In this document: positions 210 to 63,999 of the stretch, in pieces
Position numbering within the stretch: the first letter of the stretch is position 1
How the letters are laid out: each line of letters begins with the position of its first letter
NCBI RefSeq assembly: GCF_028641065.1
Contig: NC_073400.1
Coordinates: 20,212,001-20,276,000, forward strand
Source: Leucoraja erinacea
Lineage: Eukaryota
Reading direction: 5' to 3'
DNA length: 64,000 bases
Translations under genes and position numbers: made by a program
Notes under the pieces: generated by a model
The model's input: the letters and a program-made list of their open reading frames with translations, nothing else
What the model was told of the DNA's origin: nothing
Database searches by the model: none

Positions 210-7092
<6,883 letters not shown>

Positions 7093-8099: not shown

Positions 8100-8610
8100 A
8101 CCCCTTCTACCGAGTAGCTTTCCCCCCACGGCCTATCCAGTCGCACCCAAAGATCCGCTCCTCTATAATCTTTGGTCGCACCGATCCGCAGACGGACACG
8201 TCACGGCGGAGGTGACGTCGGAACAACCGGAAGTGGGGCGGAGGTGACGTCGGAACAACCGGAACTCGGGCGGCGGCGCGGGTAGACGTGACGTCGCAAC
8301 AACAACAGGGTGCGATCAATCGGAGAGGGAAGTGGCGGAACCCAACTCGCTAAATGCAACAACAAAGCAAGCAATAGCCACAAGCGCGTAATTAAATGTA
8401 ATGCCTATAACTGGAACTAATGCAATCGATAAATACACTCCGAATAAAAAGCTAAGGATTGAACAACTGCATTAAATGCCGTAAGCAGAATACTTTAAAG
8501 ACAACGCGAACTGACCAGCAACACTTGGGCGCATCCACTACATCCGGCACTCCGAACTCTCTTCCGGGCTGGAAAGAGGGCAAACTTCCGGGAAAAGCAA
8601 CAGAATGGGA
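8100..8610. promoter_or_regulatory. CpG-rich bidirectional promoter shared by COPA and NCSTN
   Basis: CpG-dense region between divergent genes. Repeated TGACGTC (CRE-like), CCGGAAGT/ACTTCCGG (ETS-like) and GGGGCGG motifs. Candidate non-coding COPA exon donor (minus-strand GTGAG) at 8101-8097. Confidence 0.8.
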
Positions 8611-8653
8611 ATGGAGGTGGCGGTGCGCTGGATCAGCGCGGCGCTTTTTATTG
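8605..8653 (+). CDS. NCSTN: NCSTN exon 1 (signal peptide [16 protein letters not shown]; alternative ATG at 8611)
   Basis: ATG downstream of ETS motifs; GTGAG donor in phase 1 matching exon 2. Confidence 0.8.
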
Positions 8654-11600
8654 GTGAGCAGGATGATGGAGCGAGGGGGCAGCGAAGATGAGGGAGGGAT
8701 GAGTTAGAGAGAGGGGATTGTAGGGAGTGAGTGGTGGTGGGGGGAGGGAGAGAGTATGGGCGGCGAGGAAGGGTAAGATGGATGGAGCAAGTTCAGGGGA
8801 AGTGGGATGGTGAAAAGAGGGGGGAGGATGCCACGGGGTAGCAAGAGGTTAATGAGGGAGGCCAGGGAATGAGGGAGAAAGAGATAGGGTGGGGAGGGGT
8901 TTAGTGAAGGAGGTGGGTGCCCTAAGGAAGGTGCCACCAATGTTGTTGAGGAGGCATATAAGTAGTGCTGGGAGTGGGAGGCCGCTCTTGTCAGCAGACT
9001 CACTCCTGACTGTCCTGTGATCTTGCCCTCAGGCCTCTGCTCTGCCAACTCTGTCGAGAAGAAGATCTACATCACCCTGAATGCGACCGCTCCCTGCGTC
9101 CGGCTTATGAATGCTACCCACCAGATCGGCTGCCAGTGTGAGTCTGGTTTGGGGAGGGTGATGGGTCGGATGTGGAGAGAAGCGCACATAGAGAGTGGCT
9201 GCAAGGGTAGTGGGTTATGTGGGTGGCTGGTTTGTGTGTTGGCTGTGCGTGTGGGATGGATGCTTGGGGTGTAAACGAGGGAGCCATGGGTGAGAGGAAT
9301 GTTAAACTGGGGTGTTGTTTAACGTTCCCTCCATCACAGTGAGGATGTGCTTGGTGAACTCACTGTGGTGGATGATTAATTTGTGTTTATTGTATGTTTT
9401 GTTATTATTGATTCTGTGTGTGACTGCAGGCAACATAATTTTGTTCAAACCGAAAGGTCTGAATGACAATAAAGGATCTATCTATCTATCTATTGTTGTT
9501 CAGCCATCTGATATATTTTCCTCCCCTCTCACCCTCAGCCTCCCTCAGCGGTGACACTGGGGTGATCCACCTGGTCGAGCAAGAGTCTAACCTCAGCTGG
9601 GTGTTGAGTGACGGTCCCAACCCTCCCTACATGGTCCTTTTGGAGAGCAACATGTTTACACGGTGAGTGGGCCTCCATGCTAACCCCGTGGATCTTAGCT
9701 GTGAGCCCCACAAGCACAGGAAGATTCTGCTACATTTAATCTGGGTTACACCTCCTTTGCTTCATTCCATTCTCTCCCCCATCTTCCGCTTGTTCTCCTT
9801 CCTCTCCCATTATCCTCACCCAGCCCCCTCGCCCCTGGGCTCTTTCTGAGGATATCGCCCCTAGTCTTGCTTTCCCTGCTGTATGTTCCCTCAGGGACGT
9901 GATGCTGAGTCTGAAGTCATCCAGTCGCGTGTCTGGCGTAGCTGCGATCCTGCCGCCCTCTCCAGCTCCCGGACAACTTTCACCTGATCTCAAGTGCCCC
10001 AACGATGGTTTTGGTAAGTGTTCGCCCATCCTTCTGAACCCTCCTTCCGTCCACCAACCCTCCTCCTTGCTCCACCCCCGTCTCCATTGACTCTTACACA
10101 CATCTGTAGATACACCGTAGTAAACTTACTGTCGGGTTGCTTCACAGCTTGGTTTTGGATTGTAAAATACTGCAGTTGTAGATGCAGCCCATTCCATTGC
10201 ACAGACCAGATTCCCCTCCATTAGAAACATAGAACATGTGTGCAGTAGTAGGCCATTCGGCCCTTCGAGCCTGCACCGCCATTCAATATGATCATGGCTG
10301 ATCATCCAACTCGGTATCCTGTACCTGCCTTCTCTCCATACCCACTGATCCCTTTAGCCATAAGGGCCACATCCAACTCCCTCTTAAATATAACCAATGA
10401 ACTGGCCTCAACTACCTTCTGTGGCAGAGAATTCCAGAGATTCACCACTCTCTGTGTGAAAAATGTTTTCATCATCTCGGTCCTAAAAGATTTCCCCCTT
10501 ATCCTTAAACTGTGACCCCTTGTTCTGGACTTCCCCAACATCAGGAACAATATTCCTGCATCTAGACTGTCCAACCCCTTAAGAATTTTGTACGTTTCTA
10601 TAAGATCCCCCCTCAATCTTCTGAATTCTAGCGAGTACAAGCCGAGTCTATCCAGTCTTTCTTCATATGAAAGTCCTGACATCCCAGGAATCAGTCTGGT
10701 GAACCTTCTCTGTACTCCCTCTATGGCAAGAATGTCTTTCCTCAGATTAGGAGACCAAAACTGCACGCAATACTCCAGGTGTGGTCTCACCAAGACCCTG
10801 TACAACTGCAGTAGAACCTCCCTGCTCCTATAGTCAAATCCTTTTGCTATGAATGTTAACATTGACTCCATCTACACTTCACGTTGCCTCTGGAAAGCTA
10901 ACGTAATTAAATACTTTTCCCACCACGGTCATTCTGCCTTCTCTATGTTCCAATCGGGCAGAACATATAAAAACTTGAAAACATGCACCATCAGACTCGG
11001 GAAGACATTCTTTCCATCTGTTATCGGGCATTAGCCAGGGCACTGTCCCGATTCTCCAACCTACCTCATTGTGAACATTGAACTATTACTCTGTCATGCT
11101 GAAAACTATATTCTGTACTCTGTATCTTTCCCTTCACTCTACCTGTTGTACTTGACTTCGGCTTAATAGTATTATCTGATTTGATTAGATGGCATGCAAA
11201 ACAAAGCTTTCCCCTGTGCCTTCAAATACATGGCAATAATAAACCTAAATGTAAATACAGACATGGGCTGATCAGTTGCTGAGGAGTTGTGAATGGAACT
11301 GAACGTGTAGATCATCAGTGACCCATTCTGACCTTCAGATGGAAGCAGCTGAAGATGATGGGGCCCGGGACACTGCAGTGAGGAACTCCTGCAATGATGT
11401 CCTGGGGCTGTGATCAGTGACCTCTGTCACCCACACCATCTTCCTCAGTGTGAGGTTTGATTACAGCCATTGAAGTGTTTTCCTTTTGCTGCCCACCTCC
11501 ATATGACGCATCAATGGATCCACCTTCCTGAACATTTTGATTTTTAAAAACCCTGCAAATTCGAACAGAATTATAATTTTGTTAATCATAATAGTCAGTG

Positions 11601-14407
11601 TAGAAATGGGCCCTTTGGCCCAACTCGCCCACACTGGCCAACATGTCACTGCTCCAAGGTAGACGCAAAATGCAGGAGTAACTCAGCGGGTCAGGCAGCA
11701 TCTCTGAAGAGAAGGAATGGGTGACGTTTTGAGTCGAGACCCTTCTTGAAGGTATGTCAAGAGTGTTTTATTGTCTTTTGTCCCAGATAGAACAATGAAA
11801 TTCCTACTTGCTGCAGCAGAACCGAATATACAAACATAGTATGATATGACAAACAAGAGAGAGAAAAGAAAAGCTCATTGTGTGTGTATATATACACATA
11901 CTCACAACATACCCATATTATATGTATGTATATGTGTGTGTATTTGACCCTATCTCCCTGCCACTCCTTTAAGCACTTTTAAGGAACCATACACCTTCAC
12001 TCCTAGATCCCTCTCCTCGACAACACTACCCAGGGCCCTACCATTCACTGTATAGGTCCTGCCTATGTTAGACTTCCCAAAATGTAACATTTCTTTATCC
12101 TAAGTTCTCTCGACCATTCCTCAGCCCACCTGGCCAATCGATCAAGATCCAACTGCAATTTATCACAACCACCTTCACTATCTGCAAAAACACCCACTTT
12201 TGTATCATCAAACTTGCTAACCTTGCCATGTATGTTCTCATCCAAATCATTGATACAGATGACAAACAATAATGGGTCCAGCACCAAACCATGAGGCAAA
12301 CCACTAGTCACGGGCCTCCAGTCCGAGAAGCAACCTTCCTCCATCAACCTTTGCTTCTTGTCATGAAGCTGATTTTCTATCCATTCAGCTATCTCGCTTT
12401 GGATCCCATGCGACCTAACCTTTCAGAGCAGCATACCATGCGGAACCTTGTCGAATACTTTGATGAAGTCCAAAGGTTGATGAGGGTAGACCTGTAGATG
12501 TACCCTCATCAACCTTTTTGGTCCCGTCTTCAAAAAAACTTAATCAAACTGGTTGGACACGACCTCCCAAGTAGAAAACCATACTGACTGTTCCTAATCA
12601 GCCCATGTCATCTAAATACCTGTATATCCTATCCTTCAGAATACTCTCTAGTAACTTTCCAACTACGGATGTTAAGCTCACTGGCCCATAGTTCCCAGCA
12701 TTTTCCTTGCAGCCCTTCTTGAATAGAGGCAAATTTCCGGCACCTGTATTTAAAGACTACTCGTAAATTTCAACCAGGGCTCCCACAATTTCCTCTCTTG
12801 TTTCCCACAATGTCCTCGGATATATATGATCAGGCCCATGAGATTTATCCACCATCATACATGATATTACCTTCAGCACCTCTTCGACTGTAGCACTGAC
12901 TACTCTCGTGACACTTCCAATGACTGCCCCAAGTTCCTCCGTCCTCCTGTCTTTCTCCTTGGCAAATACAGATGAGATATACTAATTAAGGGCCTTGCCC
13001 ATTTCCTGTGGCTCCACTCAGAGGTGACTGATTGCTGATGGATCCCACTCTAGTTACCCTTTTCCCCCATGTGTCTTTATAATAATTGAACAGATAAGTT
13101 GCAACATGTATAGCATTTAGTAATTGCAATAACTGCACACCAATTTTTCTAGATGCATCTTTAGTGGAGGTTGGTGAGGCGTTTAATGAGGTAGGAGCAG
13201 GGTATAGGAGGGGGACGGGGGAGGATGTTTCGGGAGGTAAGATATGGAGGTGTTTAGGGGAAAGATATTTTGGGAGGGTGATGTTGGGGTGTAGAGGATT
13301 AAGGAGGTAAGGGGAGGATTTTATTAGAGAGGTAGTGTAAGTGGATTTTAGGGAAGACGGTGTTCTTTGGAAGGCAGTGGGGAGGGTGTATAGGCAGCTG
13401 GAAGAGGGGGGTGTTTAGGGAGGTGGGATAGGTTTAGGGCAGGTGGCGTTGTTTCGGGCCGCAGAGGCAGGGTCTGTGTTTAGGAAGGGACAGGGAGGTG
13501 GATGGAGAGACAATGCAGCTGCTGAGGGGGCTTTCCATCAGGGTTAGATTAGGTGGTGGGGAAAGGGCTGGGAATAGAATCCATTGGGCTGCTCTAGACA
13601 GGGACCGTATGGATTCAGGTAGGTCGCCCCCGCCCTGATGAATGCGCTGAATACCGAGGGAGATAAGAGATTGCAGTGTTGAGGGTTTTGGAGAATGGGT
13701 CAGACTGGCCCTGATCTCAGTGATCACAGGTTCAAAGTGCTGAGTGGTCTATTCTGGGTCAGTTTATTCTGCACTTGTGTACTTGCAGGGCTATATTCCC
13801 TGAATTACGGGCCTGAGTACGCCCATTGCAACGAGACCCTCTGGAACCCCGAGGGCAACGGCCTCTCCTACGATGACTTCCCCTTCCCGGTCTTTATGCT
13901 GAAGGACGAGAACGAGACACAGGTCATCCGCCAGGTGAGACGGCATGTGCAATGGGAACTGCAGGAGGCCATTCAGCCCTATGCAGGGTTTACTGCACCG
14001 GAGGTTAACACAGGAGGCTATTCCGTCCCTCTCCAGCATGCTACACAGCATCATGAAGGGACTCTTCCTCCCTGTCCCACAGGAACAGGAGGCCATTCAG
14101 GCCCATTGGAAGCAGTCGCATAGGAACAGGAAGAGGCTCTCGGCTTTTCTTATCCGTTGATGGGATAAGTGGGCGGTGAGGTAATGGTCAGACAGAATGT
14201 GCCACCCAGTGTGATTGACACTGTTCACCTCCCATCACCAGTGTTACAAGGACCACAACCACCCGAGGGAGGGCGCAGCACCGGCGTTCCCGCTCTGCGC
14301 CATGCAACTGTCGTCCCACATGCATGGGGTGAAGGACACGGTGACGTGTATGAGGCGCAGCAGGGGGCAGGTCTCCATCACACTCAACACTGGTGAGTGG
14401 CCTCCGC

Positions 14408-14460
<53 letters not shown>

Positions 14461-17400
14461 TACCCATCCCAACCCTTTTCTGGTCTCTTCCTCTGCAACC
14501 CCGCTTACCCCCTCCCCCGCCGCTCAGCTTGCCCCCTCCCCGGCAGCCCTGCCCCCCCATTTCCCGCAGCCCAGCTCCCCCCCCCCCCCCCCCCCCCCCT
14601 GACAGCCCACCTCACCCTGCTCACTGACGGCCCAGCCCGCCCCCTCCCTGGCAACCAGCTCGCCCAACTCATCCTCTCCCCCATGACCCCATTCCAAGGC
14701 ACTTCTCCCATTGCTTTCCCCTCCCCCTCATCTTGTTCTTCTTTCCTCACTCTGTTACAGACGATGTCTGTGACCCGCTGTCGGACTTCAACGTCTGGAC
14801 GACCACTCAGCCCATCAATAAGTCTGGTGTTGCTAGTCCGGAGGATCGCTTTGTTGTGGCTGCAGCCCGGGTGAGTATTGGGACAGGAGTCTGACTGTGC
14901 TTTCTCCTGTCAATCTTGGCAGTCATTCTTTCTCCCCACCCCGCTCGCACATACTGGAAGACTACCCTCCGCCCGATACGTTTTCCCCTACTCCTCACCA
15001 AGGCACAGGCCAAATCCTTTCAGCACCTTCAGACCACATCCCTGGCTCCCTGTCCGTCCACATCCACCCTCCCTCGTCTATCCTTTTCATACCTCTCGTT
15101 TCCATCTCCCCTCACTCTCAGTCTGAGGAAGGGTCTCGACCTGAAACATCACCTATTTCTATTCTCCAGAGATGCTGACTGACCTGCTGAGTTACTCCAG
15201 CAGTTTAGTCTTTCTTCTGCACCCACTAAGCTGACCCTTGCTGCAGCCCTGCCCTCTGCCATATTGATGCCCATGTCTGCGCACACACACACGTCCAGTA
15301 CACTGCACACAGGCTTAGCCCCTTCCTTTTTGAAATGTCCTCAACTTCTATAACAATAATGTGCTAACCTGTCTTGCAGCTGGATAGCCGCTCCTTCTTT
15401 TGGGAAGTTGCTCCGGGCACCGACAGCGCCGTCTCTGGATTTATCGTGCTCCTAGCTGCGGCTGAGGCCCTTGCTCGGACCCCTGATGTCGAGTCTCTGC
15501 CGAAGAACATCATGTTCCTCCTCTTCCAGGGGGTGAGCTCCCTGAGCCAGGCTGCTCCACACTATCCCGTCATGCACTCTCAGGGCATTCTACACTGTCC
15601 TGTGACACACTCCCTAGGGCACGGGATAGGCACGGAATGAAACCCCTCTACAATATCTTGTCACAGTGAAGAATGAAGCTCCTGTCACTCCGTCCTGTCT
15701 AACTCACTGGGCATGGTTAGACACATGGGGTGAAGTTTTCTCTGCATTGTTCTGTCACACACTCTCAAAGCACAGGGTAAACACAGAGGTAAACTCCGCT
15801 GTTCCATTACACCCTCTCAAGGCACAGTAGAAACTGAACTTCCGTCTACACTGTCCCGTCACATGGACACAGGGCAGACACAGAGTGAAGCCCTTCACAC
15901 CGTCCCATCTACCTCACTGGGTGCAGTTAAACACATGAAGTGAAGCTTCCTTTACACTGTTCCGTCACGCACGGGTTAGACACAGACACACAGTGAAGCT
16001 TCCTCTGCACCGTTCGGTCACACATCCCAGACCACAGTGTAGACAAGGACACAGCGTAAAGCTTCCTCCATCCCATCACACACTGCCAGGGCATGGGGTA
16101 GTACATGTTAGAATGAGCTTTGCTGATTTTGTTTTTTTCCTTGCCTTTGCCCCGCACCACTCCCCAGGAGACATTTGACTACATTGGCAGCTCTCGGATG
16201 GTTTATGACATGACCAACGGTAAATTTCCCATTGCGTTGGAGAACATAGATTCCTTCATAGAGTTAAATCAGGTACGCTGTTTATGTGACAACCTAGGTC
16301 AGGTAGTATGTCTCAGACCAGGAGATGCATTCAGGGGGTGAAGTAAGAGGTGGGTGAGAGAGGTATGGAGAACTAGAGAACCGAGTTAAGAAGGGGTCAA
16401 AAACGATGTTGGAAAGAATGGGATTAAATCAGGTTCAATATTAAAAGTTGTGAGGAAAGATGGTGTATTACAGCACGCGGGACGCGATGATAGATTGGAC
16501 ATAAGGGGGCGGTGGGGGGGGATAGGCTCTAGAGTGAATGTGGTATTAATAAGTGTGTGAGGAGTAGGTGCAGAGAGGCAATAGATTAGGTGTGGTTTTA
16601 AAGGGTGCTGTCGTGTTGGAAGACTTAGATTAGATGAGGTGAGATGTTGAAGAGTAAAGCGGGGTGGGATGGAACTGTGGGATTAGAACCCATGGGCTGG
16701 AAATGGCTGCAGCAATTTGGGACTGGTTGTGAGGTTTGATAAATTGCAACTGCCTGATGTTTTTAAATTACAGATTGGCATTGGAACATCGTCAGAAATT
16801 TGGGCTCATACTGATCCAGTTTCATTGCGCAATTCCACAGTAAATGAACAGGTAGGATTGTCCTTGGCCTGCTCTGCCGATGTTTTTAAAATTCTACAGA
16901 TTGGCATTGGAACATCGTCAGAAATTTGGGCTCATACTGATCCAGTTTCATTGCGCAATTCCACAGTAAATGAACAGGTAGGATTGTCCTTGGCCTGCTC
17001 TTGCCGAAAGGTGTTTGGGGGTTTGAATTCTCTACACATATCAGCAGTACCAGCACACATAGTCTCCTGCCTCTACTTCTACCCTCCAACGACACATTCT
17101 CCTGGCACGGGTAATGAAGATTGACGAGGGAGGAGGGTGCACTAGGGAACTGGACCTCCATCTTCCTTACCAGCCTTACGTGTGGCACCTTATCAAAGGC
17201 TTTCTGAAAATCTAAGTAAACAACATCTACTGACTCTCCTTTGTCTGTCCTGCTATTTACTTCTTCAAAAAATCCCATTTGTCAAGCAAGACCTTCACAA
17301 AGCCATGCTTACTTCTGCTTATTTTATTGTGAACCAAGTACTCCGTAACCTCATTCTTTATAATGGACTCTAAAATCTTACCAACCACCGAAGTCAGACT

Positions 17401-20400
17401 AACCGGCCTATAGTTCCCACTGTTCTGCCTTGATCCCTTCTTGTGTAGCGGGGTAATATTGGCATTTTTCCAATCATCCGGGACCACTCCTGTCTCGAGT
17501 GATTCTTGAAATATCACTGTCAATGCATCCACAATCTCTTAAGCCACCTCTTTCAAAACCCTCTGGTCCAGGTGACTTATCCACCTTCAGCCCTTTCAAC
17601 TTCCCAAGCACCTTCTCCCTCGTAATAACCACTCCACTAACTTCCATCCCCTGACTGCTTTGAATTGCTGGTGTCTTCCACTGTGAAGACTGATGCAAAA
17701 AAGTTATTCAACTTCTCTGCCATTTCTTAATTCCCCATTGTCACTTCTCCTGCATCATTCTCCAGCGGCCCAACTTCCACTCTTGCCTCTTTCTTACTCT
17801 TTATATAACTGAAGAAAATCTTGCTATCCTCGTTTATATTATTGGATAGCTTACCGTCGTATTTTCATCCTTTCTCCCCGCATTGCCTTTTTAGTTACTG
17901 CATCCTGCATAGGTAGTTTTGGACTATTCCCATAAATTAGTGCTATTGCTCAGTTGGGGAGGAGGCACAACAGTCATCCCTTAATCTAGGGTTTGAAATC
18001 CCTTCCGACAAGTGGTCTGGTCCAAGGCTTTCGGATCAGTATTAAAATTGGCTTAGTATCCCTAGTTATACCCTTCTCTGTTGGTCCTTTTGAGCCATGG
18101 TCACCGTCATCCCCTTAGGCCAGGGGCACTTTGGCTCCACCCTGTGCTCAGTTGCAATACCGACACATCCATTTTCACTGTTTCCCTCTCAAATTGTAGA
18201 TTAAAACTTATGTTGTAGTTGCTACCTCCTAATGGTTCCTTTACCTTTAGTTCCTGTATCAAATCCGGTTCATTACATAACAGTAAATCCAGAATTGCAT
18301 TTGCCCTGGTAGGCTGCTCTAAGTATCCATCTTGGAGGCACTCTACAAATTCCCTTTCTTTGGGTCCAGTACCAACCTGATTTCCAGTCTACCTGCATAT
18401 TGAACTCTCCCATTGCGTTTTTTACATGCCAATTTTATCTCCTGATGTAACTTGTACCCTATACCTGACTACTGTTTGTAGGCCTGCAAATAACTACAAT
18501 TAGACTGTTTTTATGCATAATTTCACAAATGTATCCACAATGACTCTATATCTTCTGATCCTATGTCACCCCTCACTAAGGACTGGATTTTATTCCTAAC
18601 CAACAGAGCTATCCCACCCACTCTGCCCACCATCCAGTCTTTCCGACAGGACGTATAACCCCGAATATTCAGCTCGCTCTCAGTAACCCCTTCGTTCGAT
18701 ATTGATGCCTTCTTTCTGACCCCCTTTTGATACTGGCATACTCAAAGTGATTCCTGATAATACTAATACCCTCAAGATGTGTCCCCATAAATATTGACAC
18801 ACTCAAGGCGAGCTGCTGTAAATGTTGACCCACTCAAGGTGAGCCCGTGTCCATGTATACACTCTCCCGATGACACCCTGTTACACATCGTCGATTTATA
18901 CCACCAGGGAATATGGAAGTGAAGGTTCTGGGCCTGACGGTTTTGTCCGGCAGGTTATTGAGGAAGGGAGACGCATGTATTGGAGACCTGGAGCTTGCTG
19001 CCATTCAGAATGTTGGAACAGGAAATGATTGATAGTTTTTCCACTGTAATGAGATTGGCAGGAATAGACATTTGCTGGGGAGGGGGCAGATGAAGGTGTT
19101 GAGGTTGCCTGGGTCGTTGTATGGAACCCCTCGCTGAGCTGTGTGTCGTGTGCTGGAATAATTTTCTGTTGGCTGTAGGTTCAGAAGCTGCTGGCGTCCT
19201 TCTCCAAAGTCACAGCCGGAATGAACATCAGCGTTCGGCAGCCGAATCAGAGCCAGCCCCTGCCCCCGTCATCTTTCCAGAGGTTCCTACGGAAGAGGAT
19301 CATCCCTGGAGCCGTACTCACCGACCACCAGGCCAGCTTCGCCAACAGGTCTGCACCCCACTGCAGTGGCACAGCCCTGCACCCTGCATGTATTGCGAAA
19401 CGGAAAGCCCCCTCTTATCCTCCAGTTCCAGGAAAGAGCCACTCGCTACTGTTCAACATGTTTCTTGATTTTCTGCTTGACAGTCAAGATGTCCCAATGC
19501 TATTGTGAGGTAGGAAACGGGGCATTTATTTGTAGGACAGCAAGTTCCCATCATCGGCAATGTTCTGACAGGATAGTGATGCCAATGGATAAATGTTAGC
19601 CTGGGATAAGTGTATGCCCCTTCCACCATTAATGCTGCCCCACAATGGTTCCATCAGTCTGACTTGGTGACCTATTTCTCAGTCAGGTAGTTATGGGACT
19701 TGGAGAGGAACATGCAGGCCTTATTCATCTTGGTGGTAGAGCTTAAGGAACCGATTGATGGGCTGCTATGTTCTGCACAGTGTCAAGTTGCCTGCACTCA
19801 TCCAGGCAAGTGGACATTGTTGCATTACACTCCTGTGTTGTGACCTGCAGATGGGGTTAAAGGCTTTTGGGTGTCAGGGAGTGAATCACTCCCACAGGTT
19901 GGCTGGCCTCTGATATGTTCATGTAATCTCACTCTCCCCTCGTACATACTCTGTATAACCCCACCCAGTCTCAACTATCTCTCCCATCACTTCCACCCGC
20001 CTTAGGTGGTTGGTCCAACTGACAAATGCAGAGAAATTTGCAGGCGTTGGGTTTGTGGAATATTCCCATGAGAAGATTGTCAGGAGTGGACACAATGGAA
20101 CCAGGGTTCGTGAAAGCGGTGGATTGGGGGAAGGTGCTTCCACCCGCGGACGGTTCACTGAACAGGAGATTGGGTTTAAATTTCCCCGCAGAAGGATGGT
20201 GTAAGGGGAAAGAGTGATGGGGAGATAGTTGATCCGTGCCCTAACAGGGAACTAAAGAAGCATTGGAGGAGTTATGGCAGAAGAGAGAAGTGGACATGCT
20301 GGACTGAAATGACGGCTGGAACTGAGACGGTTCTATGAGCCAACAACACTTTAAATCCTGTAACTTATTATCCTAGGTATTACCAGAGTGTGTACGATCT

Positions 20401-23400
20401 GGGAGAAAATATTGGGCTGCGATACCCAGATGGACTGACTCCTGAGGAGGCTCTGAACCATATCACAGACACAGCAAAGGTAAGAGAGAGATATGGTGGA
20501 GACTGTAATTGTCAACCCTTTGTAATATTAACTCTTGCTCGGGAACCCCCGTGCCTAATGCTTTCCCTTGTAAACATTAACCCTCTTCCTTGCCTGACCT
20601 CTGAACTTGACCTGGACGATCTATTGCTCACAGGCACTTGCGGATGTGGCTTCCCTCGTTGCACGAACTCTGTACCTGCAGGCAGGGGGCAACGGTAGCC
20701 TGGAAAACATCACAGCCAACGCGCAAACAGTAAGGTTCCCATTGCTTATGCCATCACTTTTGGGGTGCTATGGAGAGGATTTACTGGACTGCTCCAAAAG
20801 GATCAGGTTTTGTAGAAGAATAATTAGAATTGACTGTCTGTTCAAGGAATAGTACCGTGCTGTACGAGTCCATGACTTCCATGCTGTACGAATCTATGAC
20901 TTCAGGGATATTGGGCAATTGATAGAAGGGTAAATAAAGTTTGGTGCAACGGGCAGAGGTCAAGGGGAGCGTTGCCCACTAGAGAAGCGTTTCTGTAGAA
21001 CAGTATTGAGCGGACTCGCTCAGCAGGAGGTTCTTTGTAATTCACAGTAATTTGGTGAAGGATGGAGAAAATATTTGTACCCAGATTGCACATAGTGGAA
21101 GAGAAAAGCAGAAGTGAGGGGCAGCGACATTGAGGAATGAGTGCACGATGTGGGAAGATAAGAGTGCGGAATTAAGAATGAACAGAGCGTCAGTGGGCTA
21201 TAGAATGATGAGAGGCGGGTGGAAGTGATGGGAGAGATAGTTGAGACTGGGTGGGGTTATACAGAATATGTACGAGGGGAGAGTGAGATTACACTGGGTG
21301 GGATATCAAAGGTTTTGTGAAGTTGGGAGAGTTGGATTAGTAAAGGTTGGATATTAAAGTGTGCAGGGAATGTGGGATTACATTGGGTGGGATATTAGTG
21401 TTCAGGGAGTGGGGTAAAGTGATGTTGTACTGAGATCTTCAAAGGGAGGGGAGACTGAGTGGGTTTATAGTGGACGAAATGTTAAAGGATACAGTTGGAG
21501 GAGATTATTTCTTCATATGCCAGCATGGATATTCAGCCCACAGAATTTCTTTCTCCAGGTGACCCGAATGCTGTATGGATTTGTAATCAATTGGAATAAT
21601 TCCTGGTTCCACTCGATCATCAGTCAGGACAAAAATGACATATTTACAAGTAAGCACTGTGGGATGGGGAGTCTTAAGCAAACCACAAAGTGCTGGAATA
21701 ACTCTGCTGGTCAGGCAGCACCTCTGAAGGGGATGGATAAGTGAAGTTTTTGGTTAGGTCCATTCTTCAGATTGATTGTGGTAGTGGTGAGAAAGCTGGA
21801 AAAGTGAAGTGAATTAAGGACAAAGCCTGGCAAATGATCGATGGATACAGGTGATAGAGGTTTTATTCGGCAGATGAATGGACGAAGACTGAAGGTGAAA
21901 AACAAATAGACAAAAGGGGGTACAATAAAGGGAGGAGTGAACTGTGAAGCTAGTGGAGGAGAGAAAGGTGGAAGAAGATGGGGAGAAGTTGAAATTGCGT
22001 GGGATAAAGGGGAAAATGGGTGTGCACCCAGGTGGGGCAGAGGGAACAGAAGGCAGCAGAAAAGGTGGGGATGTTCGTTGCCTAAAATTGGAGAATTTGA
22101 TTTCATACAGTTCCTTCAATATGCGTGTGTCATCAACAGGGGAGACCCAGAACAAAGACGTTGATGTGGGAAGGGGAGTTGTAATGGTTAGCAACCGAGA
22201 GATCAGCAGGCCGAGGAGGCCACATAGGGAGCACCGAATTCGGTAGATGAGATTATGGGAGGTGGATGTGAACCTGTGCTTCACTAGGAAGGGCAGCTTG
22301 GAGGGGGGGGGGGGGGCTCTTAATTCAATAGAATTGAGATATTAGAAACTGCGGTAGGGCTGGACAGGCAATAACAATGAGTCTGCCAGGGCACTTCTAC
22401 TTGTGGATTTTGGGAAGATGATAGAAATGGAGAGTAAGGGGCTGGGGAACTATTTAACATTTTAATGGGCCCTTTCATAACGCAATTCGAATATAGCAGA
22501 CAGACATGCCGATGTCACCCCCACCTTGCAATGTCTCCCTGGACATTTAGAGTCCCAGCCTCTGACACCACCCCCCGACTCGTTGCACCTGAGAGCCCTT
22601 CTTCACTCGCATACGATCCGGTGACACTGCTGTTGTTGCTTCTCACGTTCCAGCCCCTGTAGATGGCATTTTTTTCGGGCCTTTGTCCACTTCCCGCTCG
22701 ACTGCTGCCGCCTCCTCCTCGCATTGCTCTCTCCTCGGCCTCATTCCAAACCACCCCTCCCCCTAACACAGCCTCCTCGTCCTCTTCCGGAGTCGCCCAC
22801 ATACTCCATGTTGGAAGTCGCAACAGGTGAGAGGGTAGAGAGCCACACGATGACCGAGCACATCTTGTAATTGGAAGTGGCATGTAGCCAGAGGCTACAA
22901 TGCGAGCCACAAAACAGCTGTGTGAACTGGTGAAGAAGGCCAGCAGCATTGGCGCCTAGTTTTAAAGTGAAACGACACCGTGCTGGAGTAACTTGGCCAA
23001 CTGAATCGGTCTGAAGAAGGGTCCTGACATCACCTATTCATATTCTCCAGCGATGCTGCCTGACACACTGAGTTACTCCAGTACTTTGTGTATAGTTCAA
23101 GTTCACGTTTATTGTCACTTAACCAAATAAGTTACAGTGAAATTGGAAGGTACAGTGAAAATTGTTCAGTTTAGAGATACAGTGTGGAAACAGCCCTTCG
23201 GCCCATCGAGTTCCCGCCAGCCAGCAATCACACCGTACACTAACACTATCCTGCTCAATTGGGGCAATTTACAGAAGTCAATTAACCTACAAATCTGTAC
23301 CTCTTTGGAATGCGGGAGGAAACCAGACCACTTGGAGAAAACCCACGCGATCACACGGAGAACGTGTGATCCATGCAGACAGCATCCGTAGTCAGAATTG

Positions 23401-24238
23401 AACCTGGATCTCTGGCACTGTCCTTTTGTGTATTAGCCACCATCTGAAGTTCTTTGTTACAACTACATATAATGATAATACTTTACTCGGTTATAATGGA
23501 CAATCTGCAATAACGGGCATTATTTCCCCCTCTCCCGTGGTCCTTTATAACGAGTGTTTACCGTGTTGAAGAGAGATCGCCAGAGTTGATGGGATCGGTG
23601 ACAGCCTGCTTGATGGTGTCCTCGTGTTTCAAGGTCAAACGGTAGATATGAGGTCATGGGGTAGATATGAGGACATGTTTAAGAGCTGATGCCGGATGTC
23701 AGCAAGGTAGAGGCCAGCTTGCCAGACTACAAGAGCACCTCCCTTATCGGAGAATCTTGGTAGTGTTGAGAGTTACCCCGGTGCTGTGAGCTTGACCTGC
23801 GATTGGGGGCTTTTATCACAACATGCATGCTGGGCGGAAGTGCCTTTGCCCATGGGTTGCTGGGTGCAATGGGTGTTCATTCAAATCCACCCCAACCCAC
23901 TCTTCTCACCAACCCTCTTTTCCCATCCTCTCTCTCCCTTTTCTCTCCATACAGAACAGAAACACATCTCTTTCTATGTCTCAGTCAATGAACAGACCTT
24001 CTCGACGGTGCTGGTGGAGCACGTTCTGTTTAACCTGACCGGTCATCATGCCAACCTGACTGAGGAGCAGTGTCGGGACCCCAAAAGCATCCCGCACCCC
24101 GATACCAACGTGAGTACCAACCCCTCACCCGTTGTCTCTACCATCCGCTTTACCTCCACCCGGCCTGTCCCACCACCCCCTGCAATCTTATCTCAACTGT
24201 TTCACCCCCCCCCCAGCCTACGCCATCCCATTTACCCA

Positions 24239-24297
<59 letters not shown>

Positions 24298-25740
24298 TCA
24301 CCTGGCCATCTCCCCCCCGCAGCCTCTAATTGCCCTCCCTCCATGTCCATCCAAGCGCAGCGATCCTTACCCCTTCTCTCACTGCAGTCACTCATCACCC
24401 TCTCCCCTTTTCTGCCCTTAGTTTTTCAATTACATTTGGGTGCAGGGGACGAAGGCGGAGAACGCCAGCGAGCCCACCCCTTACTGCGTGCGCGCCAACG
24501 TTTGGTTGTCGCGGGCCCTGTCCCCAGCCTTCGAGCTGGCTGACTATTCCTCCACCGAGTACTCCACCTGGACCGAGAGCCGCTGGCAGAAGGTGGGGGC
24601 CCGAATCTTTTTAGTGGCCAGCAGGGAGCTGGAGGTGAGTAGTGCTTCGTGACAACTTTGCTCCTTCACTTCCCCCTTTCCCCGGTCAGAAACTTGACCA
24701 AACACAGACCCTGGCAGAGACCTGAGGGACAGGCCATGCCGTTCATTGCAGCCATGCCCTTCATTAACGGGACATGGGAGTGGAGCCTCCTCATGTGCCA
24801 GGCCACAAAAAGTGGTGTAACCCAGCGGGGTCAGGCAGGATCTCTGGAGAAAAGGAATAGATGATATTTTGGATCGAATACCTTCTTCGGACTCGGGAAA
24901 GGGGAATAAAATATATAAATGGTACTTGGGACAAATGAATGGAAAATATGCAGAAAGCAATGGTAATCAAGGAAATGTGGAGCCTGCATTGGTCCATTGT
25001 TGGCTGTGGGATAGGTGATGACGAGTTAATATAAATGGAACTTAACAGGACAAAAGTGAAACTAGTATGACGACGGATGGAGGAGGGGCTGAAAGAGAGG
25101 GATGCAATGCTTACTTGAAGTTGGAGAAATCAATATTCATACTGCTGGGTTGCAAGCTGCCCGTGAAGTATGAGTTGCTGATCCTCCAATTTGTGTTTGG
25201 CCTTGGAGCCACCTCTTAGAGTTACAGTCATACAGTGTGGAAACAGGCCCTTTATAAATGTTGTAATCGCAGAGTGCCCTCCATAATGTTTGGGACAAAG
25301 GCCCATCATTTGTTTATTGCCCCTGTACTCCACAATTTGAGATTTGTAATAGAAAAAAATCACGTGGTTAAAGTGCACATTGTCAGATTTTATTAAAAGG
25401 GATTGTTATACATTTTGGTTTCACCATGTTGAAATTACAGCTGTGTTTATACGTAGTAGTCCCACCATTTTAGGGCACCATAATGTTTGGGACACATGGC
25501 TTCACAGGTGTTTGTAATGTATATGACATTGCCGTGTCCCAAACAGTATGTGGAAGGTGTTAAGCATCATGTTTGACTCTCACCATGTTGTTGTGTCTCC
25601 TACCTCCCAACCCTCAGATCATCACGTTGGTGACCGGAATCTGCGTCCTCATCACGTCAATGGTCCTCATCCACTTCCTCAATGCCAAGTCCAACATACT
25701 CTTCTCTGGACCCCAGGAGCATAGCTCCGTCAGCTACTGA
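8605..25740 (+). CDS. NCSTN: Nicastrin (gamma-secretase subunit), complete, 17 exons, ~696 aa
   Basis: Spliced CDS of 2091 nt using one copy of exon 10. Signal peptide, [48 protein letters not shown] helix and C-terminal ...SVSY* match nicastrin. Confidence 0.97.
9033..9137 (+). CDS. NCSTN: NCSTN exon 2
   Basis: [35 protein letters not shown]; 105 nt. Confidence 0.95.
9539..9662 (+). CDS. NCSTN: NCSTN exon 3
   Basis: [16 protein letters not shown]...[17 protein letters not shown]; 124 nt. Confidence 0.95.
9895..10013 (+). CDS. NCSTN: NCSTN exon 4
   Basis: [16 protein letters not shown]...[11 protein letters not shown]; 119 nt. Confidence 0.93.
10223..10860 (-). mobile_element. 5'-truncated CR1/HER1-like LINE with open RT C-terminal frame, nested in an older Rex/Babar-like remnant (~10090-11250)
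   Basis: ORF 10302..10871 ([19 protein letters not shown]...[13 protein letters not shown]...[14 protein letters not shown]); TTTCTATG-type tail. Confidence 0.9.
11950..13080 (-). mobile_element. CR1-like LINE RT fragment (degenerate)
   Basis: ORF 12063..12347 [27 protein letters not shown]...SKFDDTK (RT motifs). Confidence 0.85.
13789..13934 (+). CDS. NCSTN: NCSTN exon 5
   Basis: [14 protein letters not shown]...[10 protein letters not shown]; 146 nt. Confidence 0.95.
14242..14392 (+). CDS. NCSTN: NCSTN exon 6
   Basis: CYKDHN...[25 protein letters not shown]; 151 nt. Confidence 0.95.
14761..14870 (+). CDS. NCSTN: NCSTN exon 7
   Basis: [22 protein letters not shown]...FVVAAAR; 110 nt. Confidence 0.93.
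15380..15532 (+). CDS. NCSTN: NCSTN exon 8
   Basis: [13 protein letters not shown]...NIMFLLFQG; 153 nt. Confidence 0.95.
15541..16110 (+). repeat. ~50-60-bp satellite-like tandem array (GTGAAGCTCCCTCTACACTGTCCCATCACACACTCCCAGGGCACAGGTTAGACAC-type unit)
   Basis: About 9-10 degenerate units; short arrays of the same unit at ~610-775, 2290-2470, 29600-29900, 39650-39840 and 41890-41970. Confidence 0.75.
16168..16272 (+). CDS. NCSTN: NCSTN exon 9 (DYIGS motif)
   Basis: [15 protein letters not shown]...FIELNQ; 105 nt. Confidence 0.95.
16774..16851 (+). CDS. NCSTN: NCSTN exon 10, copy A
   Basis: [26 protein letters not shown]; 78 nt; CAG/GTAGG. Confidence 0.75.
16900..16977 (+). CDS. NCSTN: NCSTN exon 10, copy B (identical tandem duplicate)
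   Basis: Same 78 nt as 16774-16851 with its own CAG acceptor and GTAGG donor. Confidence 0.75.
17160..18660 (-). mobile_element. CR1-like LINE ORF2 fragment (frameshifted)
   Basis: ORFs 16886..17278 ([17 protein letters not shown]), 17257..17532 ([27 protein letters not shown]), 17474..17698 (KSPGP). Confidence 0.9.
19179..19348 (+). CDS. NCSTN: NCSTN exon 11
   Basis: VQKLLASF...[17 protein letters not shown]...[11 protein letters not shown]; 170 nt. Confidence 0.93.
20377..20479 (+). CDS. NCSTN: NCSTN exon 12
   Basis: [12 protein letters not shown]...ITDTAK; 103 nt. Confidence 0.95.
20634..20729 (+). CDS. NCSTN: NCSTN exon 13
   Basis: [19 protein letters not shown]...ANAQT; 96 nt. Confidence 0.95.
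21559..21649 (+). CDS. NCSTN: NCSTN exon 14
   Basis: [21 protein letters not shown]; 91 nt. Confidence 0.93.
21670..22460 (-). mobile_element. Penelope-like element remnant (RT and GIY-YIG pieces plus 3' end)
   Basis: Minus-strand [15 protein letters not shown] (PLE RT-like) near 22320-22450; ORF 21814..22284 begins [21 protein letters not shown] (GIY-YIG-like). Confidence 0.7.
23165..23422 (-). mobile_element. tRNA-derived SINE (HE1/V-SINE-like)
   Basis: Matches the family at 38692-38997. Confidence 0.75.
23955..24109 (+). CDS. NCSTN: NCSTN exon 15
   Basis: [10 protein letters not shown]...[15 protein letters not shown]; 155 nt. Confidence 0.9.
24422..24634 (+). CDS. NCSTN: NCSTN exon 16
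   Basis: FFNYIWVQG...[36 protein letters not shown]; 213 nt. Confidence 0.95.
24810..25205 (-). mobile_element. Penelope-like element 3' fragment
   Basis: Terminal motif shared with the 388-600 family; ORF-end remnant ([10 protein letters not shown]-like) shared with ~48960-49040. Confidence 0.55.
25273..25520 (+). mobile_element. Tc1/mariner terminal inverted-repeat fragment (IR/DR type)
   Basis: GTGCCCTCCATAATGTTTGGGACA at start, repeated internally ~210 bp later; closely similar to 27562-27830. Confidence 0.7.
25618..25740 (+). CDS. NCSTN: NCSTN exon 17 (TM helix, cytosolic tail, stop)
   Basis: [40 protein letters not shown]; TGA at 25738-25740. Confidence 0.95.
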   Translation: MITLVTGICVLITSMVLIHFLNAKSNILFSGPQEHSSVSY

Positions 25741-31700: not shown

Positions 31701-34700
31701 TTGTAATTCCTGCCAGCTTGGATAAGATTCCACCACTGTCCCCTCCTCTCTTGTTTCAACACTCCCAAAGGCCTGGATAACCTATCCACTTTATCCACTG
31801 GATAACTGTTCCATCTCCACCAATCACACCCCTTCTCACGGTGCTCTGCCATGCTGCTACAGCTCTTCCCATCCCAGGCTCCTTCAACTCTTCCCATCCC
31901 AATCTGGGTACCCAAACACTTCCTGCCAGGTGAAGCAGCAATTTGCTTGTGCATTCTTCAATCTAATGTACTGTATCCTGTGTTCACAATGTGAGTTTCC
32001 CTGCCCCAGACAAATATAGAGATTGGGTGACAGCTTTGCAGAGCGTCTGTGTTCAGTCCACAGGGCCATCCCTGTGCTTCCAGTTGCCTGTCACATGGAT
32101 TTTTCTTCCCACCCTCGCCGTGACACTTCCTATCAATTCCTGTGAGGCTCAACACAAGCTCAAGGAATACCAGGTCATTTCATGTTATTTCATTCAGAGC
32201 TCAGCATTGAATTCGACAATTTCTGATAAGCACCCAGTTTCTGGCTGGTTCCGATGAAGTTCCAATGTTAATTCTAACTTGACCTGCTGGGTATGTCCAG
32301 TTACTTCAGTGTTCTCTGTCTCTCAGCTCAGTCATTGCTTTCCATGCCCTCTGCCTTATTCCCTCCCTCTATATACAGTATCAATTTGATACTGATCGGC
32401 TGTGATTAGCAGGCCTTCCCCACCCCTCTCTTCCCCAGCACGACTTGTGTCACTCTGTCTCTGGTGGTCGTCACCCTGTCACAGAAGTTTCCCTTCTCTC
32501 CCTCATCCCTCCAATTTCAAACACAGGTCATCTTCCAACTTTTCCAATTGCCATGAAAGGTCTTTGCCTGAAATGTTTCTCATGGGCAGCACAGAACCAG
32601 GTCCTATGGCCCATCAAGTCCGTGCTCATTATTAATTGTCTAATGTATATCAATGGATGTGTATGGGCTGAAAGGCTTATTTTTGTGCTTTGTAACTCTT
32701 GCCCATCTGTATTAATCCTATTTACCAGCTCTTGGTGCATAGTCGTCATTCCCTGGTAATTCAAGTACTTGTTTAGATGTTTATTAGAGCATTAGGGCAG
32801 TGCTTTCCAGATGCCAACCACCCTCTGCGGGGAAAATATCCGCCTTAGATCTCCGTTAAACCATTGCCCACTTGTCAAGTCGAGTAAGTAACTGTCAAAG
32901 TCCTCCCTCTCGCACACCGCTAGAAGTTCCATAAAAGTATTCAGCGACTAGCCATATCTCCTCGCTCTGCAGAGGGATAGAAAGTTGATGAGCTTTCTTG
33001 CATCAATGTGCTGTGCCCACGACAGTGCTTCACAGATGTGCATGCCCAAGAATTTAATCTGCTCACTCTTGACCTGTGGATGAAGACAGGTTCATGGATC
33101 CTTGGTTTTTCCTTCCTGACATCACACTATGATTACTCCCCATGCTCTGCCCTACTCTACCCCATCTGTGGTTTGATGATTTTACTTCCATTATCTTTGA
33201 TCTTTTCTGACATGACAGGAAGTGATCCAGATTCGCAGCAAGAATTTACTTCCTGCTTACAGCAAACATTGACGGGATTGGCTAAGAATGCAAGTGACTT
33301 ACAGGTAACTTACTGTCAAATTATCCTCTCCTTGACACTTTGCTACCTTGTGAGGTAACTGACCTGGCATAACCTATGTGCATGTGTTTTTTTTCTCTCT
33401 CTCTCTCACTCTCACTCTCTCTCTCGCTCTATATCTCTCTCTTTCACCTTGTGCTGCTCTGTAACTATCTGACTTTGCACCCCTTTGTGATTCTGGCATC
33501 TCTGTAATTCTCTCTCTGACCTGTGTGCGTGTGTCTATTTCTCTCTGTGACCTCGTATCCCTCCGTACGTCTATCTGATGTTGTTCCCCTTTGTGACTCT
33601 CTTGCAATTGTTATTTTCTCTGTATCCCTTGTCGCATGCCCACTGTAATTCTCTGAACCCATTTACTGTTATGTCTCTCCCCTTCCTGCTCCCACCCCAA
33701 CTTTGCGTACACACCCTAACTCCCTGTGTGTGCCTCTGCAGCAGAGTCCGGATATGTCTGAGGAGGAGCTGAGTCAGGCCATGGACGGGCTGGGCCTGGG
33801 ACCGAGCGGGGTGCCGGGAGAGACGGAGGCAGGCCTCGCCCCCATCATGCAGGACATTGTGCAAAGCCTGCTGTCCAAGGAGGTGCTCTACCCGTCCGTG
33901 AAGGAAATTGTGGACAAGGTAGGTGATGGGCCAAGGCTTGGGGGTCATCGGGGGGGGAGCAGGCACCTGAGCACAGAAGATCCCACTATAAGATGACACG
34001 GTTCTGCTTCTGTCCATCCATCCATGACGCTCCGTCTGCTAATTCCAACAATCACACCACCCTGCTTGTTCTGCTATGGTAGAGAGTTTGCATGGCAGCA
34101 ATGAGCCTACTGACTTCCACTGCTATAACTGTTCCATGATACTATCATTAGCGTCCACGATATCGAGGTGTAGCATCCCCAGGGCACAGTACAGTTGGAG
34201 CAGGGTGCCGTCTATACTCAGATCCTTTTGTGGAAAAGGCCAATGTACCTTTTGCTGTGCATTGTACTTGCTCATAGCCATTCCGCCAGGTGTGCACAGG
34301 GTCACCCGGATCTTTCCATTTACCCGGCACCTTGCAGCCTCGTACTTCTTGGAAAACACTACACCTTTGTAACTTATTTCCCACTAAGGTAGTTGATAAA
34401 TGTTTCCACAATATGACTATGGGAAATAGGAGCAGAATTAGGCCATTGAGCCTATTGAGTCTACCACGCCATTCAATCATGGCTAATCTATTTTACCCTC
34501 TCAACCTCATTCTCCTGCTTTCTCCTCGTAACCTTTGATGCCCTTATGAATCAAGAACTCGTCTGTCTCCGCTTTAAAAATACCCAGTCCTGGCCTCCAC
34601 CGCCAGACTCACCACCCCCTGGCTAAAAAACAAATCCTCATCTCCATTCTGAGTTTTAGACTCCCACTCCAGGAAACATCCTTTCCATGTCCACTCTATC

Positions 34701-40740: not shown

Positions 40741-40783
<43 letters not shown>

Positions 40784-50374: not shown

Positions 50375-63999
<13,625 letters not shown>

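Follow-up and report, generated by a model that had tools for sequence, protein, structure and literature searches.

A doubled exon 10 of the nicastrin gene in a little skate genome assembly: a probable false duplication

The nicastrin gene and its neighbourhood

The window, the whole 64,000-nucleotide stretch of Leucoraja erinacea DNA analysed here, contained on its plus strand the gene for nicastrin (NCSTN; 8605..25740), a single-copy and essential subunit of γ-secretase. With exon 10 taken once, the spliced model had 17 coding exons and 696 amino acid residues, AG/GT borders throughout and a single stop at the end; apart from the 48-nt interval described below, all introns were at least 154 nt long. 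The protein contained both PF05450 and PF18266, whose profiles matched this locus alone in the assembly, the DYIGS motif (residue 323), and a full-length match to the solved structure of human nicastrin (5a63_A; E value of 3e-285), in which residues 369-392 corresponded to skate exon 10 (residues 355-380). The gene name, exon number, and chondrichthyan origin assigned from the letters alone were right. Identity with nicastrin of Amblyraja radiata was 97%. The skate protein is a full-length orthologue of the vertebrate protein, showing no difference at the protein level if one exon 10 is used. No second NCSTN locus or processed copy was found, the DNA and both Pfam domains matching one locus only.

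The model was identical (696/696) to the nicastrin of L. erinacea in the databases, XP_055510677.1 (P0005). Among 25 proteins from skates, rays and sharks, alanine at position 435 (codon 19341-19343) occurred in P0005 only, and threonine in the other 24; A435 is either an uncommon allele or a sequencing error at one base. Since this private residue was common to both, P0005, probably predicted from the same sequence, was treated as not independent of the window.

Head-to-head with NCSTN, and approximately 1.5 kb upstream of 8605, a gene was found on the minus strand (5850-7092; ATG at 7092-7090), the first exons of which we take to resemble COPA. Between the two start codons (8205-8273), a 32-bp unit was repeated in 2.2 copies with 94% matches, each unit containing TGACGTC and CCGGAA, presumably CRE-like and ETS-like motifs, respectively. 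Downstream of NCSTN, the plus strand carried one exon of PEX19 (PF04614) and a gene encoding WD40 repeats and an acidic segment (33649-33993, 54981-55808), the latter gene presumably DCAF8-like. In human, PEX19 and the DCAF8-like gene presumably sit beyond COPA, on its other side, and this different order would mean a local rearrangement. Pure poly-C runs were present at 14409-14458 (50 nt), 14577-14599 (23 nt), 24240-24295 (56 nt), and 40742-40782 (41 nt), with 36 further C or G runs of 20 or more in 400 kb nearby; the lengths of poly-C may be unreliable.

The doubled exon 10 and the reads across it

In the assembly, exon 10 stood twice, head-to-tail, with a period of 126 nt (TRF row 16750-17007: score of 471, 96% matches). 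Copy A (16774..16851) and copy B (16900..16977), both on the plus strand, were identical exons of 78 nt in phase 0-0, each preceded by CAG and followed by GTAGG, and with the N-S-T sequon at N374. An exact core of 107 nt (16769-16875 = 16895-17001) included each exon. The acceptor of copy A occupied 16750..16773, and the donor of copy B and the start of intron 10 occupied 16978..17006. The 48-nt spacer between the copies (16852..16899) consisted of 24 nt of the intron 10 start, a 19-nt junction (16876..16894), and 5 nt of acceptor. No assembly gap lay between the copies, and no N anywhere in the window. By motif scan, a branch-point-like yUnAy sequence (CTGAT at 16754) was available to copy A, and none was found in the acceptor of copy B or in the whole spacer. 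On either side, exon 9 (105 nt, 16168..16272) was supported by RNA depth and by joints to exon 10, and exon 11 (170 nt, 19179..19348) by RNA loose ends behind exon 10 that had its sequence. Degenerate repeats with a spacing of ~53 nt were noted in intron 8 (15685-16100).

The spacer was in frame and stop-free, as the sequence-only reading had claimed, and the open frame ran from the A acceptor to the B donor (16774-16977), read-through adding 16 + 26 = 42 residues. The TGCC(T)GA microhomology that it placed at the junction was also there. Its statement that only the acceptor tracts differ was correct for the acceptors, but not for "only", the junction being also one T short in comparison with the downstream flank. 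The second N-S-T sequon "next to" the DYIGS region held for the sequon; the nearness was loose, DYIGS lying at residue 323 and exon 10 starting at 355.

Eight of 24 listed read sets were examined: five DNA runs from four samples with three species labels (X1 and X2, organism A, sample S1; X10, organism A, S7; X3, organism B; X5, organism C) and three RNA runs. The ~126-bp unit with its identical exons and CAG/GTAGG sites, although present in the assembly as described from the sequence, was seen in 0/8 of them. In all five DNA runs, none known to derive from the assembled animal, one unbroken contig joined 16768 to 16895, skipping 126 nt; depth was 0 over 16803-16869 and the junction was uncovered. 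The contigs tracked the window up to 16768, picked it up again at 16895, and showed no differing letters from there to at least 17017. They thus represented a single-copy allele made of the copy A acceptor and the downstream flank of copy B, and the comparison with related species that had been proposed as a check gave a single copy in the DNA of organisms B and C. As assembled contigs, these data show presence and may lose rare variants. In a de Bruijn assembly, a duplication at allele-level depth would be expected to fork the graph where the 107-nt repeat lies and so to break the contig, which was unbroken. On the other hand, the window differed from the DNA contigs of organism A at 16304 (S1) and at 16553 and 16688-16689 (S1 and S7). 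One RNA read of sample S18 had the window's letters at 16688-16689, indicating that those letters, at least, are real alleles. Given these differences and the private A435, the haplotype of the assembly may well exist and yet be missing from the reads examined.

From RNA run X24 (organism A, S18), approximately 5/100 of the raw reads were sampled and 206 were placed. The exon 9-exon 10 joint was carried by 91 reads, 51 put on copy A and 40 on copy B (the copies are indistinguishable), and 45 loose ends continued past exon 10 as exon 11 sequence. Among these 206 reads, from a sample that may lack the duplication, a joint between two exons 10 did not come up to the threshold of three reads. Depth in the two spacer bins was 16.9 and 19.8, versus an expectation of 21.8 and 20.1 for a spacer empty of reads. 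The contigs of X11 (S8) and X16 (S12), runs taken as RNA by guess, read exon 9-10-11 with one copy. The count of spacer reads and A-B joints, suggested earlier as a check, therefore came to none among the matches listed in 3/3 RNA runs, and neither a composite contig nor any other spacer signal appeared among them. Because the duplication may be missing from these samples, they are uninformative on how a carrier would splice the gene. Loose ends listed outside the gene derived from a repeat at 17159-17200.

A synonymous G>A at exon position 18 (16791 / 16917) was found in 53 of 103 bases of X24, being absent from the other seven runs. Its use as a mark of two diverged copies was set aside because an ordinary synonymous allele is simpler.

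The junction and other two-copy repeats

The 19 nt at 16876-16894 were the sole sequence unique to the doubled form. When all clean duplications tried were compared with the assembly, the best model (unit of 124 nt, spacer of 46 nt, out of frame) required four edited bases in three indel events and no substitution. The spacer is therefore 48 nt long and in frame because of the junction indels. The probability that three random events spare an exact run of 107 nt was 0.009, and that of three indels in three events, given the other two-copy repeats of the assembly, was 0.002-0.013. A young allele absent elsewhere should not have gained three later mutations, so that the seam either was already untidy when it arose or reflects an error in the reads.

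Simulated single-copy reads covered both cores and none aligned across the duplication: 0/93 and 0/126 for reads of 150 and 250 nt, respectively, with a cover of 0 at every printed position from 16876 to 16894. Short-read polishing would accordingly correct both cores fully but not touch the seam. The simulation is partly circular, any non-identical seam lacking cover by single-copy reads; its point is that the differences lie at the ends of the unit and none inside.

A survey of 1,864,000 bases of the assembly gave 26 TRF rows with about two copies, some of them overlapping, and NCSTN exon 10 was the only coding-exon repeat recognised. The exon 10 repeat was far beyond chance. The 25 other rows contained 141 substitutions and 44 gaps, and the eight rows passing the complexity filter contained 52 and 8, respectively, substitutions thus dominating. 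In approximately 1.8 Mb, neither a second indel-only case in unique sequence nor a size peak was found, arguing against a frequent systematic error. A gap-only row (C20, period of 101) was an array of ~50-nt units and not comparable. A systematic class of artefact with a size close to an assembler k-mer was also considered, since one published little skate assembly used k up to 111, according to the accessible part of PMC10115646; cases in the surveyed bases were too few to judge it and formed no peak. Two near-perfect head-to-tail duplications were noted at L113 2521-2872 (175 bp, exact) and L116 6889-7100 (109 bp, one substitution) (G000:C32); their seams were clean, with one substitution or none.

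Origin of the doubling

We consider it likely that the doubled exon 10 is a false duplication from noisy long-read assembly and that the real gene has one exon 10. Of the three readings offered from the sequence alone, the assembly artefact was the best supported. A noisy long-read consensus or join would have entered this stretch two times, with the TGCC/GA microhomology as the point of fusion. Polishing with short reads may then have made both 107-nt cores perfect, single-copy reads fitting either, and could neither remove a copy nor reach the junction, where the raw-read indels would have stayed. Insertions dominate the errors of PacBio continuous long reads (CLR). In the accessible parts of the sources, the single-pass error of CLR is >10% (PMC8495745), and both published little skate assemblies, with neither of which the studied assembly is equated, combined PacBio long reads with Illumina polishing (PMC10115646, PMC9605692); one of them lists CLR data, a hybrid backbone, Racon, and gap filling as the last step (PMC10115646). 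Heterozygosity of the species is given as 1.6% in the same part of PMC10115646. False exon gains and homotype duplications arising from read errors are documented by Ko et al. 2022 (PMC9516828, in the part available). As in the cases described there, the NCSTN exon has two copies on a single scaffold, the reads examined lend no support to the extra sequence, and the setting is an error-prone long-read assembly of a heterozygous animal. NCSTN differs from them, as far as that part goes, in its much smaller size (126 bp), in having no N gap between the copies, and in that its reads came from other or unassigned samples rather than from the known source of the assembly. Against an artefact, a deep long-read consensus would usually strip an unsupported insert of 126 nt, by our reasoning, and the read sets are not known to represent the assembled animal, so that haplotype differences and polymorphism may have left a duplication unsampled. 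If the doubling is an artefact, it is of interest only as a warning: exon 10 reads divide between the two copies in the reference, which distorts counts of reads and the calling of variants, and short, perfect doublings of exons should be verified in the reads.

A real but private or rare allele, formed as a young tandem duplication of 124-126 bp when a break at the TGCC/GA microhomology was repaired with errors and leaving mRNA and protein unchanged, is unlikely. At 48 nt, the spacer would not be long enough for splicing, and copy A, which keeps a branch-point motif, would probably be the one used. The window haplotype was unmatched by the DNA examined, the species is highly polymorphic (the 1.6% heterozygosity of PMC10115646, in its accessible text), and microhomology lies at the seam. 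Small tandem duplications are common, and the part of Schimmel et al. 2021 available to us (PMC8355091) describes products of double-strand-break repair that are likewise head-to-tail with microhomology at the seam, including a "TD+" class with extra mutations, a minority. The 109- and 175-bp duplications are candidates for the same process in 1.8 Mb, but their seams are clean, whereas NCSTN has three separate indels within 19 nt, seen in the assembly only and unlike the duplications in that part of PMC8355091, and none in 107 nt. The NCSTN doubling was also missing from both conspecific DNA samples and from both relatives.

Far less probable is an expressed allele, whether a 204-nt composite exon (+42 residues, with one more N-S-T sequon) or a newly arisen pair of mutually exclusive exons acting through steric hindrance, as had been proposed from the sequence. 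Its frame is open over 16774-16977 and the RNA samples may lack the allele, but that frame depends on the junction indels; no spacer reads, exon 10-10 joint, or composite contig occurred among the matches listed in 3/3 RNA runs, which deprives the composite exon of support. No read set contained the second copy of the supposed pair, and identical copies would yield one mRNA whichever was used, hence no isoform difference. An intron of 48 nt is too small for the ~50 nt from donor to branch point that the accessible texts of PMC5740500 and PMC7969005 give as the limit for steric exclusion, making A-B joining unlikely; human introns under fifty nt exist (10.1101/784868, as far as its available text goes), and the limit is thus not absolute. 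It is also very doubtful that an undiverged duplication segregates whose spacer has prevented A-B joining ever since it arose and whose carriers additionally produce a 738-residue nicastrin with an extra N-glycan site. If real and expressed, the doubling would show, in a model animal where it could be tested, how exon duplication begins to lead to mutually exclusive splicing, a stage of which living examples are rare.

In layout, the NCSTN doubling resembles a mutually exclusive pair: tandem, homologous exons of equal length and phase, as in Hatje et al. 2017 (PMC5740500) and in OGDH 4a/4b (PMC7969005), with a spacer of 48 nt in total, below the <50 nt between donor and branch point of the steric type (both sources as available in part). 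It falls outside the class on divergence and on sharing between individuals. The pairs described in those parts are diverged and conserved, whereas the NCSTN exons are identical, so that different products are not expected, and are not conserved in relatives; the NCSTN pair was not seen in reads, and its copy B lacked a branch-point-like motif. The pair of same-length, same-phase exons was present in the assembly and in none of the five DNA runs, a single copy being found in the DNA of organisms A, B, and C and in 137/137 proteins.

This last figure came from 140 nicastrin sequences fetched, 137 of which had both anchors (DYIGS and the LPP motif) and contained the exon 10 motif once. Searches returned no protein with the doubled segment: a 68-residue read-through query, with 34 candidates, retrieved just two nicastrins, each of them single-copy, and a 145-residue open frame query found 0/127, both weak negatives. 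The 16 listed of the 34 members of protein cluster 1 were all 693-696 residues long. Our literature search found no paper combining skate with nicastrin, and the titles and abstract beginnings listed on nicastrin, its exon 10, or splicing included none on an exon duplication. The span from DYIGS to LPP was 81-86 residues in 135 of the 137 anchored nicastrins and 98 in two primate models, the largest insertion here therefore being approximately 12 residues, and an insert of 42 residues was without precedent among them. In the two primate UniRef models (P0129 and P0135), the additional ~12 residues lay where exons 9 and 10 meet, perhaps from an annotated alternative acceptor.
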